Shown here: one piece after another, positions 30,001-33,000 of the stretch | How positions within the stretch are numbered: the stretch's first letter is position 1 | How the letters are laid out: each line of letters opens with the position of its first letter | Assembly: GCF_021246445.1 (NCBI RefSeq) | Contig: NZ_JAJQXW010000001.1 | Coordinates: 922,068-986,067 of the forward strand | DNA from: Rhabdothermincola salaria | Lineage (GTDB): Bacteria > Actinomycetota > Acidimicrobiia > Acidimicrobiales > Acidimicrobilacustridaceae | DNA: 64,000 nt | Direction of reading: 5' to 3' | Made by a program: the position numbers

Positions 30001-33000
30001 GGGCTCCATCACCCCCCGGGACTCCGAGATCCTCTCCGCCGCCGCCGCCGAGCTCGGCGCGGCCGCCGACCTCGTGCTCGAGGTGGGCTCGCACCCCGAT
30101 CCCGACATCGACGTGCTGTTCGCACCACGGCCGGAGTGGCCCGCAGACCTCCAGGAGATCACCGATCACGTCCTCGGCGTCACCCGATCCACGTGGACGG
30201 GCGACGGCCTGCTCACCGAGGTCCGGGTGGCGATCGACTCCAGCATCGGCCAGGCCGCCCGCAACGAGACCATCGTCCACGAGCTCGTGCACGCACTGGG
30301 GATCGGCCACGTCGCCTGCCCGACCTCCATCGTCCACGGCGGCGGCGAGGGTGCCCCTGGTTGGTCGCTGTCGCCCCTCGACCGTGACCTCGTGCGCACC
30401 TGGTACGCGCCCGAGCTGTCCCCCGGCGATGACGCCGCCGCCGTCCGAGCCGACCTGGTGGTCGTGACGGGCGGACCCGAGTGCGAGGCGCCCGGCCTCG
30501 AGGCGGCCGAGACCCCCGAGGGCACCCTGTGGTGCGAGCTCACCGAGGGCGCCAGCCGACCGTGCGTCGTGGTCGACGGCCTGGGCGCCGAACCGGCTGT
30601 GCCGTTCGGCGCCGCCGCCGAGTGGTGGGTGATGGACGGCATCGTCTTCGATCACGATCCCGACCGGTACGAGGCGTTCGTCTTCGAAGGCCGCCGCCTG
30701 CTGTGCGAGCGCACGCTCGAGGGACGCTGGCCGTGCCAGTTCACCGAGGGGCCGGGCCCGTTGACCGGCGTCGACGCCTGGACCGACGGCGACCTCGTCT
30801 ACGACGCCCCCTGAGCGATCGCACCCGGTGGTCGGACGTCGGGATCCTCGGCCCCGGTGCGGGGCTCGATCCACACCTCGGCGAGCGGTCGGGCGTTCTC
30901 CTGCAGCCAGGCCAGGGCTTCGGCCACCTCCCGCGGGTCCGAGGATCGCTCGAGGTCGCGCTCGACGTCCTCGAGCGCGGCCTGCAGGCAGTACAGCCGG
31001 CCCTGGAGGTCCTCGAGCCGTTCACGATCGACGATGACGTCGGCGTCGCCGAGGCCGTGGGCCCCGGCGAGCTTGCGGGCCAGGTACGCCTGCTGGCGAC
31101 ACCCGGCCCGGCAGTAGCGCCGCGGACGCCCCGCACCGCGGCGCTCGGGCAGGTTGCGGCCGCACCAACGGCACCGCCGCGCCGGATCGCTCCCCTGTCG
31201 GCCGGGACCCGGCCCCGCGCTGGATTCCGTCACCTGACGCAATCTAGCGGCGGGGTCGGGTCCCGTGGGTGATCCCCGATCAGCCGGTGAAACGGGGCGT
31301 CACCACCACACCTGGCCCCGACGGGGTCGGCGCGGTGCTCGCCGGAGCGACCTCGGTGGTCGTGCTCGTCGTGCTCGTCGTGGTGGTGGTGCTGGCGGGG
31401 GGCGGCGGTGGCACCGGCAGCGGGAACGGGGCCAGGGCCAGACCCCACACCCCCTGGTAGGTGGCGAACACGTCGGCGAAGCCGTCGCTGAAGGGCGACG
31501 ACAGGGCTCCGGCATCGGCGCCCGAGGCGATGACCCAGGTCTCCAGCGACACGAGGGGGTCCTGGCCCCCGACCGCCCACTCGCCCAACGGCTCGCCGAG
31601 CGCCACCAGGGCCTGCAGGACCACGGCGGTCGAGTTCGGGTCGGCGCCGAAGCTCAACAGGTCGAAGGCGAAGCCGCCGCGGTGGGTGCCGTCGTCCTCC
31701 TGGAGCTGGCTGAAGAAGGTGCCCGGGTCGGTGTCGAGCAGCCCCAGCGCGTCCGTGGCCGCCAGGGCCTGCACCGCGAAGGAGGTGTTGTTGCTGTCCG
31801 GGCTCAGGTACTCGGGATCACCGACGACCACGCAGTCGGCCAGCCCGGCACCCTCCGGCGCCCGGTATCCCTGCCAGCCCCCGAGGGTCTCGGCCGGCCC
31901 TTCACCGGCACCGCACTGCTGGTCGGCGAGCCATCCGAGCGAGCCGGCCGGGACGGTCTCGCCGGCCGCGACCAGGCCGAGCACGGCCAGCGACTGCAGC
32001 GTCGCGGACGAATAGGAGTCGGGGACACCGAACAGGCCGGTCTCGGATACCTCGTAGGTGGCCAGCGTCCGCCCGACGAGATCGGTGCCGGGTGACCCGA
32101 AGGCCCGGGGGTCGCGCTCGGTGGCGACGGCCAGCATGGTGAGGTAGCCGAGTCGACCCGGGTTGTCGACGCCCCCCACCACGGCGTAGTCGTCGACACG
32201 GGCCTCCAGGTAGCCCATGGCGGCGTCGAGCGCCTCGGGCTGCGTGCCGGTGGTGGCCAACGACAAGGCCACGTTCACCGTCCAGCTCACGGAGGGCACG
32301 CCGGGGTCGTAGGGGTTCTCCACCGACCCGTCGGGACCCACGAGGCCGGCCAACCAGGCGGTGGCCGGCCCGGCCGCCGGCGACGACGCCGAGGTGGGGC
32401 TGGGCACGACCAGCGCGCCGAGCACGGCGGCGATCGTGACGACGACCACCAAGAGGCGTCGTCGGGTCGGGTGCAACAGGGTCATGGGGATCCTCGATCG
32501 GTCGGGGCGGACGAGACGCCTCCCCCGCTCCCCCACGCTCGGCCCGCTCGACCGACTCGCAGATTCCCGGGCTCGGCACCGCAGTCCGCGACGGTGCATG
32601 CAGAGCTCTCGTGACCGGTCAGGTGATCCGACTCGCCGAGGGTCACCCCTCGACACACGGTTGCGGGACAGCGCCGGACTCTCACCGGACTTCCCCTCAC
32701 CGGGCACGTGTTCGTGTAGCGCTCGCCATCCGAGCACGCCCGCCCACCCGCCGTCAACCACGCTCCTACACTCGGGACCGAGACGGGGCTCGGGGGATCG
32801 ACCCCACCCTCGAGGCGAGGAGGCTGCGATGGGCGACCACACCACGAACGACGAGCTCTTCGACGAACGCAAGCCGCTGCTCTACACCCCGGCGACCTTC
32901 GACGACCCCGCCGCCGAGCGGCGCCACCGCCAGGAGCGCCTCGCCGCCGCCTTCCGCCTCTTCGGCCGGTTTGGCTTCGGGGAGGGCGTGGCCGGGCACA

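Follow-up and report, generated by a model that had tools for sequence, protein, structure and literature searches.

What does a secreted protein with an alpha/alpha-toroid fold do behind a cobalamin riboswitch? The question is raised by a gene in a 64,000-nucleotide stretch of the Rhabdothermincola salaria genome (the window; C1:922068-986067). Genes that supply B12 are usually marked by a cobalamin riboswitch. An earlier note on this DNA had proposed a two-gene counterpart of transcobalamin, each half with its own riboswitch, that serves an ECF importer. The comparative side of this proposal gained strong support in our analysis; corrinoid binding, heterodimer formation, surface retention, hand-off and transport are steps that we infer. 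The toroid gene probably, though by no means certainly, codes for the alpha half, now detached, of a bacterial corrinoid trap that resembles transcobalamin.

The toroid gene and its riboswitch

The open reading frame (31280-32485, minus strand, with its TGA stop at 31280-31282) translates to a secreted toroid protein of 401 aa. It is preceded on the same strand by an AdoCbl (cobalamin) riboswitch aptamer at 32568-32721, which matches the full Rfam model RF01482 (1-149) with an E value of 8.6e-7. The score of 52.6 bits passes the gathering threshold of 50; against RF00174 the element reaches 30.1 bits, just below the cut-off of 31.5. The contig positions reported earlier for the gene (g00876) and the riboswitch agree exactly with these window coordinates. 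Scans with RF00174, RF01482 and RF01689 also bore out that the genome has just two cobalamin-class riboswitches, one at this locus and the other (C1:1812771-1812893) before the beta-like gene g01658 of a second locus, which holds the ECF genes.

The leader between aptamer and start codon, a presumed expression platform read from the sequence (32486..32567, minus strand), carries a GAGGA ribosome-binding site (32491-32495, minus strand) 5 nt before the ATG. A scan around the toroid gene returned no intrinsic terminators and no promoters, and the fold of 32465-32600 was not more stable than shuffles (z +1.2). Because no terminator was seen and the leader fold is no stabler than the shuffles, we only suggest that the riboswitch acts at the level of translation. 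A look for RNA evidence gave 13 runs, none of them listed as an RNA data set and none containing half of the sampled words.

The protein is organised into four parts, all encoded on the minus strand. A putative signal peptide (residues 1-33, 32387..32485) was read by eye from the translation, with RRR, a hydrophobic core and TSA/SS, and in an alignment of 78 toroid relatives (A1, also used as a profile) the N-termini are laid out in the same way, with a signal-like segment. The alpha/alpha-toroid domain (residues 34-357, 31415..32386) is followed by a Pro/Thr-rich linker (residues 358-394, 31304..31414, pLDDT 60-78) and by the C-terminal tail VTPRFTG-COOH, the PxFTG tag (31283..31303). Re-modelling at pLDDT 92.1 reproduced the alpha/alpha toroid described earlier, with its alpha6/alpha6 arrangement. 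Foldseek against the PDB gave squalene-hopene cyclase 8pak as the best match (1.1e-6); haptocorrin 4kki came 33rd and transcobalamin 7qbe_C 50th. A pair of cysteines is conserved among the toroid relatives.

At the sequence level, the earlier finding that the protein has no Pfam match was confirmed: at E<=10 the search gave one chance-level row alone and no PF01122 row. Distant homologues do carry PF13243, PF00432 or PF13249. The A1 profile matches squalene-hopene cyclase (2.7e-19) and drimenyl diphosphate synthase (2.3e-13), and no chain of transcobalamin, intrinsic factor or haptocorrin at E<=10. The toroid stands closer to terpene cyclases and prenyltransferases than to animal transcobalamin, and the caveat raised earlier, that the fold is shared with these enzymes, is reinforced by both the profile and the structure matches. 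Among named families, the protein matches NCBIfam SCO2321_fam (NF053823) with E 6.7e-17 and 61.5 bits, under the curated cut-off of 300; a standalone toroid of Streptomyces reaches 199.9 bits and also stays under it. A search for longer, fused relatives gave three matches, none of which has DUF4430.

The beta-like protein and the ECF genes

The second locus lies about 0.86 Mb away, outside the window, so that the two loci share no operon in R. salaria. It starts with the gene for a membrane-anchored beta-like protein of 349 aa (C1:1811598-1812647). The genes behind it are as previously described: an EcfT-like gene (CbiQ 6.7e-5, a weak match of 23.1 bits against a cut-off of 25), a double ABC ATPase (EcfAA') and a 6-TM protein (EcfS). 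The EcfS call comes from Atlas features only, namely resemblance to ECF S components (0.97) and PF12822 in 39-61% of the members of the top clusters. Neither the S nor the T component showed a sequence match to any solved ECF protein.

The beta-like protein was modelled with a pLDDT of ~90 over residues 60-180. Its likeness to the beta domain of transcobalamin and haptocorrin, which the earlier note had reported, was recovered: these proteins make up 11 of the best 13 PDB rows listed by Foldseek (E 2e-3 to 1e-2), the other two being the bacterial DUF4430 protein 3u7z and an unrelated ubiquitin-like complex. Compared with the isolated human beta domain 5no0, TMt is 0.72. A profile from our own alignment of the family (A2) found no transcobalamin, intrinsic factor or haptocorrin at E<=10, and DUF4430 at E<=1 occurred in 0/49 beta-like members. 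The protein matches SCO2322_fam (NF040672) with E 1.9e-17 and 64 bits, below the curated cut-off of 85. That the family already has a Pfam number, PF28005, was correct; Atlas output gives it the name 'SCO2322', and it is found on 81/81 listed matches among the relatives. Toroid and partner thus match the NCBIfam families SCO2321 and SCO2322, both below the cut-offs, and these names come without a function.

Riboswitch linkage, co-occurrence and gene arrangement

We surveyed 401 genomes of the class (Acidimicrobiia). A toroid match was observed in 98 and a beta-like protein in 93; both are present in 81, compared with ~23 expected under independence, a difference that overstates the association because related genomes are not independent. 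A toroid match alone occurs in 17 genomes and a beta match alone in 12. Some of these single-half genomes may reflect assembly gaps or threshold effects, and halves working alone may exist too.

Riboswitch linkage is nearly complete. In 93/98 genomes the 1500 nt upstream of the toroid gene contain an RF00174 match on the same strand, and in 81 the match is within 400 nt; in three of the five toroid genomes that lack one, the gene lies at the edge of a contig. Viewed from the other side, 133/150 riboswitch matches in toroid- or beta-bearing genomes have a toroid or beta gene within 1.8 kb after them. Outside the class, a riboswitch was found directly upstream at 4/10 loci tested.

Where both genes are present, they are adjacent in 53/81 genomes and separate in 28. 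The adjacent pairs are mostly arranged as toroid then beta (47), with five in the reverse order and one divergent, which places 52 on one strand. In 22 of the 28 separate cases the toroid and the beta gene have a riboswitch apiece, within 240 nt, and the split arrangement is found in 10/10 genomes of R. salaria's family. The detached toroids form a coherent clade, with a tree that needs 3 label changes compared with a mean of 18.5 after shuffling. In the relative G111, a single beta gene goes with two toroid genes in tandem, both of which have a riboswitch of their own.

The toroid also stands next to the transporter genes. Among 79 named loci, EcfT/EcfAA' follow the toroid directly in at least 23, mostly with EcfS and regardless of whether a beta gene is detectable; the ECF genes at these loci are highly similar to those of the second locus (tblastn E down to 0). 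Natural fusions point in the same direction: an ORF of Streptomyces avicenniae (1996 aa) combines an SCO2322 domain (91 bits) with an SCO2321-like toroid (71 bits). As leads, Atlas returned an archaeal cluster with DUF4430 and toroid and a Chloroflexota cluster in which toroid and PF28005 occur together in 11% of members.

B12 use without detected CbiC, CobD or CobS

The R. salaria genome encodes B12-dependent enzymes: two genes are of the methylmalonyl-CoA-mutase type, and B12-binding domains number six. No CobD/CbiB, CobS or CbiC was found in it (97.8% complete), and with neither CobS nor CobD detected, cobinamide could not be completed in this organism. Across the class, CbiC was detected in 26/401 genomes, namely 4/98 with and 22/303 without a toroid. 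Since the great majority of the class shows no CbiC, absent synthesis does not single out the toroid carriers. The idea that these carriers are enriched for B12 auxotrophy was dropped, as the test has no power with 375/401 genomes lacking a CbiC match.

The C-terminal PxFTG tail

The toroid protein stops at a Gly (...VTPRFTG) and has neither the membrane helix nor the basic tail of an LPXTG sorting signal. Read-through of the stop codon to a hidden membrane helix was considered and rejected: the 11 in-frame codons past the TGA hold no hydrophobic stretch. The tail is conserved, with 63/65 closer toroid relatives in A1 ending in [FYH][TA]G and an invariant G401, and it is common to 23 secreted proteins of the genome. 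The same genome has one sortase gene, and among the 14 rows of a pattern scan ten are canonical proteins with LP[YF]TG/LAYTG, a helix and RRR. Like the LPXTG signal, PxFTG is a C-terminal tag that sits behind a Pro/Thr linker on diverse secreted proteins, and its last three residues, [FY]-T-G, match those of the canonical LP[YF]TG substrates; it differs in having Pro at the Leu position and a variable residue at the Pro position. Distant toroid relatives carry an LPxTG-like motif followed by a helix and a basic tail at the place of PxFTG.

At the named loci, FTG-ended toroids were found 22 times alone and never in operons, which suggested a tie between the tail and detachment of the toroid. 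This link is rejected because at least G200 and G084 of the class sample have a beta gene directly after an FTG-ended toroid. The FTG tail tracks lineage, not gene arrangement. A literature search on PRFTG, PAFTG, FTG-CTERM and PxFTG tails found no relevant work, and a helix-free C-terminal PxFTG-COOH tag on 23 secreted proteins looks new. As a speculation that we rate as rather doubtful, PxFTG-COOH might be an undescribed surface-retention signal, perhaps a minimal sortase substrate from which free Gly leaves, and would occur on dozens of secreted proteins in certain Acidimicrobiia lineages. It would fix the detached toroid to the wall above the anchored beta-grasp protein and so give an in-trans, bipartite, riboswitch-co-regulated B12 clamp, with true extracytoplasmic substrate-capture proteins for an ECF transporter, a class that by definition has none.

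Proposed function and alternative explanations

The reading as a two-gene catcher is strengthened by the co-occurrence, adjacency and fusions of the two halves, by an almost universal riboswitch control, and by B12 use without detected CbiC, CobD or CobS. In the mechanism that we propose, low intracellular adenosylcobalamin would let the riboswitch permit expression of the toroid gene. After export, a Cys191-Cys218 disulfide would probably stabilise the toroid, and its linker and PxFTG tail would probably keep it on the cell surface. The second riboswitch would switch on the anchored beta-grasp protein of the SCO2322 family and a dedicated ECF importer (EcfT, EcfA-A', EcfS). Toroid and beta-grasp protein could then close on a corrinoid from either end, in the manner of the paired transcobalamin domains, and hand it over to the S component, with import driven by ATP.

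Alternatively, the toroid might bind corrinoids on its own as a surface protein for hoarding or capture, much like Bacteroides BtuG, with the beta-grasp protein alone serving the ECF importer and no clamp being formed. Such a lone binder would fit the coherent clade of detached toroids (3 label changes versus 18.5 shuffled), the 17 genomes with a toroid match and without a strong beta match, and the two tandem riboswitched toroids per one beta gene in G111. We nevertheless consider it unlikely, given that toroid and beta are adjacent in 53/81 genomes, that natural fusions exist, and that co-occurrence is 81 against ~23 expected, even if the kinship of the genomes overstates this last figure. 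A further alternative keeps the pair and changes the ligand to another tetrapyrrole or a precursor of corrinoids, with heme, cobinamide and pseudo-B12-type corrinoids as candidates, in place of cobalamin itself. The single relative with experiments, the alpha-like/beta-like operon of Lactobacillus sakei, is linked to heme uptake and not to B12, going by the available text of the preprint (10.1101/864751), and Burroughs et al. left room for 'B12 or its precursors' in the portion of their paper at hand (PMC1796856). The position of 93/98 toroid genes and of most beta genes behind cobalamin riboswitches argues against another ligand, and for cobinamide the failure to find CobS and CobD does so as well, as completion would then be impossible in this genome; we judge this alternative improbable.

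Finally, the toroid could be an extracellular enzyme or wall-associated protein, similar to terpene cyclases, prenyltransferases or glycoside hydrolases, with indirect B12 control unrelated to uptake. Its best structural and sequence relatives are indeed enzymes, and hydrolases and epimerases are numerous among (alpha/alpha)6 toroids. DxDD is the catalytic motif of class II cyclases, and D.DD was present in 0/78 aligned toroid sequences. The location outside the cytoplasm, where prenyl diphosphate substrates are not expected, and the operon linkage and fusion with beta-grasp and ECF genes also speak against an enzyme, which makes this explanation very improbable.

Relation to known systems

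ECF transporters are textbook importers without extracellular binding proteins. ECF-CbrT of Lactobacillus delbrueckii reportedly works without extracellular capture proteins, and its ECF module is said to serve further S components as well. It is an ECF-type vitamin B12 importer, according to the available part of its description (PMC5997447), and in this respect resembles the system proposed here, where the S component matches no solved chain by sequence.

The bacterial trap with transcobalamin-like parts goes back to Burroughs, Balaji, Iyer and Aravind, whose 2007 paper, in the portion available, predicted that a bacterial toroid, a transcobalamin-like SLBB protein and CbiO/CbiQ scavenge B12 (PMC1796856). 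Both their systems and ours have a secreted or anchored beta-grasp protein of transcobalamin fold and a toroid, beside genes for a CbiQ-like protein and an ABC ATPase, in organisms that mostly lack B12 synthesis. The same text stresses a toroid-SLBB fusion and contains no riboswitch analysis (the word occurs 0 times; PMC1796856), whereas in R. salaria the two are separate proteins from two loci and a riboswitch precedes each. The PF28005/SCO2322 family has no DUF4430 sequence match. The second precedent is a 2019 preprint on L. sakei, whose available text describes two separate secreted proteins, beta-like Lsa1839 and alpha-like Lsa1840 (GGTase-like by HHpred), together with EcfS, EcfAA' and EcfT, and proposes scavenging outside the cell and transfer of the ligand to the S component (10.1101/864751). 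Compared by description, Lsa1836-1840 differs in having five genes in one operon, heme as the claimed ligand and a host of another phylum (10.1101/864751). R. salaria shares with such two-protein catchers the secreted toroid and the anchored beta protein with EcfT, EcfAA' and EcfS, and lacks the shared operon.

The mammalian proteins transcobalamin, intrinsic factor and haptocorrin (2bb5, 4kki, 5no0) also combine an alpha6/alpha6 toroid with a beta-grasp domain. They do so in one polypeptide, whereas the beta-like fold of R. salaria is found in a separate protein, and sequence similarity to them is detectable for neither half.

The novelty claimed earlier for an ECF transporter with an extracellular catcher is not supported: as the available texts have it, one was predicted in 2007 (PMC1796856) and a separate pair described in the L. 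sakei preprint (10.1101/864751). The idea of a B12 trap of secreted toroid and beta protein with an ECF importer is not new on this showing; what does look new is the separation into two loci with the riboswitch duplicated. Literature searches found no relevant work on SCO2321-2324, nothing on bacterial systems for DUF4430 with cobalamin, and, among the papers listed, nothing relevant on a cobalamin riboswitch with prenyltransferase and ECF, the available text of PMC3766115 holding nothing specific.

Significance

Relatives of transcobalamin in bacteria have stood as a prediction since 2007, and this family is an unusually clean test case: nearly all members lie behind a cobalamin riboswitch, and the two halves are found as fusions, as neighbours and at split loci. 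Most or all riboswitch matches in many of the genomes belong to these two loci (133/150). If the pair clamps B12, it would be the first transcobalamin-type binder outside animals and would back the proposed bacterial origin of the animal transcobalamin proteins. The tail shared by 23 proteins may point to an unfamiliar way of holding proteins at the cell surface. A B12 clamp of this kind would also explain how abundant Acidimicrobiia of freshwater, soil and sludge, most of them without CbiC, are supplied with B12.

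The toroid gene and its riboswitch

The open reading frame of the secreted toroid protein P0001 (401 aa) lies on the minus strand of the window, with an ATG at 32485 and a TGA at 31280-31282, and the sequence carries a GAGGA motif 5 nt upstream of the ATG on the same strand. The frame is preceded by the aptamer of an AdoCbl riboswitch at 32568-32721 (-), which scores 52.6 bits with the Rfam model RF01482 (gathering score 50). The same aptamer is also matched by RF00174, the general cobalamin model, at 30.1 bits, slightly below its cut-off. The coordinates of the earlier note are contig positions of this 3.9 Mb genome (7 contigs) and match the window (C1:922068-986067) when positions are counted from C1:922068, whereas the offset of 930001 printed with them is wrong. 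The P0001 gene looks monocistronic, since its downstream neighbour (29714-30814 (+)) is convergent and its upstream neighbour (start at about 32840 (+)) divergent. A scan around the gene found no intrinsic terminator and the leader folded no better than shuffled sequences.

The convergent neighbour at 29714-30814 (+) encodes 366 aa. Its N-terminus is signal- or lipoprotein-like, and it also has a Thr-rich stretch and the motif HELVHALGIGH, which we take to resemble a metzincin zinc site. A tandem glycine riboswitch (33702-33909 (+), 54.7 and 41.6 bits) immediately precedes a 971-aa glycine dehydrogenase-like frame (33954-36869 (+)), an ordinary arrangement, and a GcvT-like frame is found at 36900-38009 (-). 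A 571-aa frame at 26651-28366 (-) ends in seven tandem AAEPAAET-like units.

The genome (97.8% complete) has two genes of the methylmalonyl-CoA-mutase type as well as six B12-binding domains, and CobD/CbiB, CobS and CbiC found no match in it. Given these B12-dependent genes and unmatched enzymes, the organism appears to use B12 without synthesizing it or completing it from cobinamide. CbiC was detected in 26 of 401 class genomes, namely in 4/98 toroid carriers and 22/303 non-carriers. By this measure, B12 auxotrophy prevails throughout the class and does not set the toroid carriers apart.

Fold and relatives of the toroid protein

P0001 begins with a segment that by eye is signal-like (residues 1-33; RRR, a hydrophobic core and TSA/SS), followed by the toroid domain (34-357, AlphaFold2 pLDDT >90), a Pro/Thr-rich linker (358-394) and the seven C-terminal residues VTPRFTG (395-401). 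The AlphaFold2 model, made with a 78-sequence alignment, has a mean pLDDT of 92.1 and a pTM of 0.84. All 41 Foldseek matches against the PDB at E<=1e-3 are alpha/alpha toroids, led by squalene-hopene cyclase 8pak (1.1e-6) and then RabGGTase beta subunits; haptocorrin 4kki ranks 33rd (6.6e-4) and transcobalamin 7qbe_C 50th (1.2e-3). This bears out the earlier note, which had described an alpha/alpha toroid with transcobalamin as a low-ranked match and had reported no Pfam family, as we also found when P0001 alone was scanned. Re-scoring with VIA-align favoured prenyltransferase beta subunits (about 20.5) and cellobiose 2-epimerases (about 20), with no cobalamin binder among the 50 rows listed. 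With the toroid family profile, squalene-hopene cyclase is matched at 2.7e-19 and no transcobalamin at E<=10. The sequences of the alignment, 78 in number, all lack a D.DD motif; 69 of them have the conserved pair Cys191 and Cys218, which fits a disulfide of an exported protein. The NCBIfam model 'SCO2321 family membrane protein' was matched below threshold, with 61.5 bits against a cut-off of 300.

The proposed partner locus

Genome-wide, the models RF00174, RF01482 and RF01689 together detect just two cobalamin-class riboswitches, the number that had been claimed before. The second (C1:1812771-1812893 (-)) lies upstream of four genes, and we recovered there the set described in the earlier note: a 349-aa beta-like protein, an EcfT-like protein (CbiQ 6.7e-5, 23.1 bits against a cut-off of 25), a double ABC ATPase with two ABC_tran stretches (1.5e-50) and a 325-aa protein with six transmembrane segments. 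The 349-aa protein starts with a signal-like segment, continues with a folded domain (pLDDT about 90 at residues 60-180) and a long Pro/Ala stalk, and ends in a helix. Its proposed likeness to the transcobalamin beta domain was seen again, with transcobalamin or haptocorrin in 11 of the best 13 Foldseek rows listed; the other two are the bacterial DUF4430 protein 3u7z (TMt 0.69) and an unrelated ubiquitin-like complex. The E-values of all 13 are weak (2e-3 to 1e-2). Compared with the isolated human beta domain 5no0, the TMt is 0.72. Precomputed labels place PF28005, named 'SCO2322' in the Atlas of protein clusters, on 81/81 listed relatives, and NCBIfam matches SCO2322_fam at 1.9e-17 (64 bits, cut-off 85). 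By sequence, DUF4430 was matched by 0/49 beta-like members at E<=1, and the family profile did not match transcobalamin. The six-segment protein has an Atlas similarity of 0.97 to 'ECF transporter S component' clusters, 39-61% of whose members carry PF12822; neither it nor the T component matched solved chains by sequence.

About 1 kb past the end of the ECF operon, a 301-aa frame (G000:C1:1805704-1806609, corresponding to L001:1705-2610 (+)) combines an HTH-like N-terminus with a B12-binding domain (PF02310, 55.6 bits). It could be a B12-dependent regulator of the CarH/LitR type.

Occurrence across the class

We searched a sample of 401 genomes of the same class; as these genomes share kinship, all counts are descriptive and do not amount to a test. 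The nearest named relatives are MAGs of Acidimicrobiales, Microthrixaceae and Iamiaceae. The toroid profile matched 98 genomes in 59 of 178 genera (E<=1e-10) and the beta-like profile 96 genomes (E<=1e-5). For the latter, 97 rows with E<=9e-12 from 93 genomes were retained and 13 weaker rows excluded, 12 of which touch just the low-complexity stalk and helix; the excluded row of genome G240 is probably real, because the domain is covered and a riboswitch lies in front. The two families are present together in 81 genomes; a further 17 have just the toroid and 12 just the beta-like family.

The genomes searched with RF00174 were the 97 foreign ones that have a toroid and 13 with a beta-like match and no toroid (11 of the 12 beta-only genomes, one unpublished genome being omitted, plus G240 and G263, which hold only excluded weaker rows); the model matched in 47/49 and 59/61 genomes of two batches. 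In 93/98 genomes the toroid match has a riboswitch at most 1500 nt upstream on its own strand, and in 81/98 at most 400 nt upstream; in 3 of the 5 genomes lacking one the gene is at a contig edge. Conversely, these genomes hold 150 riboswitch hits, of which 133 have a toroid or beta-like gene at most 1.8 kb downstream. The two genes lie within 3 kb of each other in 53 of the 81 two-family genomes (47 toroid-then-beta on one strand, 5 beta-then-toroid, 1 divergent) and apart in 28, of which 22 have a separate riboswitch 78-238 nt upstream of each gene; contig-edge cases are among the other 6. The split arrangement is found in 10/10 genomes of the window's family, our own counted.

Another member of this family has two tandem toroid paralogues with a cobalamin riboswitch before each (G111:C1:1400167-1403230, locus L004). 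Paired RF00174 hits on one strand, 100-250 nt apart and directly upstream of a toroid gene, are possible tandem cobalamin riboswitches (G272:C85:2392-2715, G281:C1:705380-705731, G392:C3:131002-131394, G293:C1:351513-351832).

Gene order, phylogeny and fusions

A scan at one genome per species gave 79 named loci, which were searched by tblastn with the proteins of our own genome. The 41 closest (L035-L075) carry the toroid alone, with no ECF genes within 7 kb, the flanks of 6 being too short to judge; the two Streptomyces loci among them have a beta-domain match upstream of the toroid. Most loci on the distant side encode toroid, beta-like protein, EcfT, EcfAA' and EcfS consecutively, and their ECF genes are very similar to those of our second locus; the Chloroflexota order is toroid, S, T, AA'. 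The labels 'alone' and 'operon' need 3 changes on a maximum-likelihood tree built from 73 toroid domains, against a mean of 18.5 after shuffling (0/500 shuffles as low). The fully supported clade of P0001 (27 rows, all 'alone' or undetermined) nests among operon-type rows under midpoint rooting, the root itself not being established. It is likely that the toroid detached from an operon. Of 10 loci scanned with Rfam outside the class, 4 (three Chloroflexota, one Mycobacteriales) have a riboswitch immediately before the toroid gene, and none was detected on the toroid strand at the other 6.

In Streptomyces avicenniae, a 1996-aa frame (L066:905-6892 (+)) joins an SCO2322 domain (91.2 bits, above cut-off) to an SCO2321-like toroid (71 bits), together with fn3, NHL propeller and Ig-like domains. 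It is followed by a standalone toroid gene (L066:6941-8041 (+), 199.9 bits), and no riboswitch was detected in this locus. As leads, Atlas listings include an archaeal cluster whose members carry Prenyltrans (100%) and DUF4430 (98%), and a Chloroflexota toroid cluster with PF28005 on 11%.

The C-terminal PxFTG tail

The tail of P0001 (window 31283-31303 (-)) recurs in the 78-sequence alignment, where 63/65 closer relatives end exactly in [FYH][TA]G after a linker. The 13 distant ones do not, and 10 of these by eye have an LPxTG-like motif together with a hydrophobic stretch and basic residues instead. Among the 13,699 stop-to-stop frames of our genome that reach 150 aa, 24 have FTG as their last residues. 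With a minimum length of 120 aa, the ending [PA]xF[TA]G was found in 24 frames, of which 23 have a Pro/Thr/Ala-rich linker and most have signal-like N-termini. Excluding one cytoplasmic-looking frame leaves 23 secreted proteins of unrelated families that share a Pro/Thr linker and (V)(T/A)P-x-F-T-G-COOH, with no membrane helix beyond (for example G000:C1:54135-55274, C1:1913771-1915297, C1:678397-679470, C3:290064-291287 and C4:2854-3420). Pfam assigned families to 13 of the 20 examined, as diverse as M28 peptidase, trypsin, alpha/beta hydrolase, cadherin-like, Big_9, fn3, NHL, DUF4397 and a glycine-rich domain. At the DNA level, a probe for P-x-F-T-G-TGA matched 14 times in our genome, compared with 0 for three permuted controls, and in 68/401 class genomes, clustered in a few families with up to 31 matches per genome (reversed-pattern control 0-2). 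The genome has one sortase, and 14 pattern-scan rows include 10 canonical proteins with LP[YF]TG/LAYTG, helix and RRR. Compared with the canonical LP[YF]TG motif, the tag shares the last three residues and stops at the glycine. It looks like a C-terminal sorting or retention signal; candidate roles are those of a minimal substrate of sortase, a signal read by a different enzyme, or a peptide for docking. NCBIfam gave no match to the tail in P0001, and the tag was not found in print under the spellings searched.

Relation to predicted catchers

Burroughs et al. 2007 (PMC1796856) defined a bacterial transcobalamin-like clade of SLBB beta-grasp domains, with signal peptides and Gram-positive anchors, alpha/alpha toroid fusions on either side of SLBB, and operons with CbiO-like and CbiQ-like genes. 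They noted that the carriers typically have no B12 synthesis, and proposed that such systems scavenge B12 and that the animal proteins are of bacterial origin. A 2019 preprint (10.1101/864751) describes Lactobacillus sakei lsa1836-1840, encoding EcfS, EcfAA', EcfT and secreted beta-like and alpha-like proteins, the last two modelled as a heterodimer with a proposed hand-off to the S component; that locus was tied to heme uptake. The earlier note had presented an extracellular catcher for an ECF importer as new. This is not supported, because the reading of two secreted transcobalamin halves feeding such an importer has already been published. A search of open-access papers and preprints yielded none on this actinobacterial family or its riboswitch linkage, and none with binding data for any bacterial pair.

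The P0001 system belongs to a known, predicted kind. It differs from the known predicted catchers in being split across two loci with a duplicated riboswitch, in families too diverged for detection as Pfam toroid or DUF4430, and in the PxFTG tail of P0001. In the most likely explanation, which we consider rather probable, P0001 serves as the alpha half of a catcher for B12 or a corrinoid: toroid and SCO2322-type protein would jointly catch the ligand for a dedicated ECF importer, and separate copies of the cobalamin riboswitch would co-regulate the toroid locus and the partner locus.
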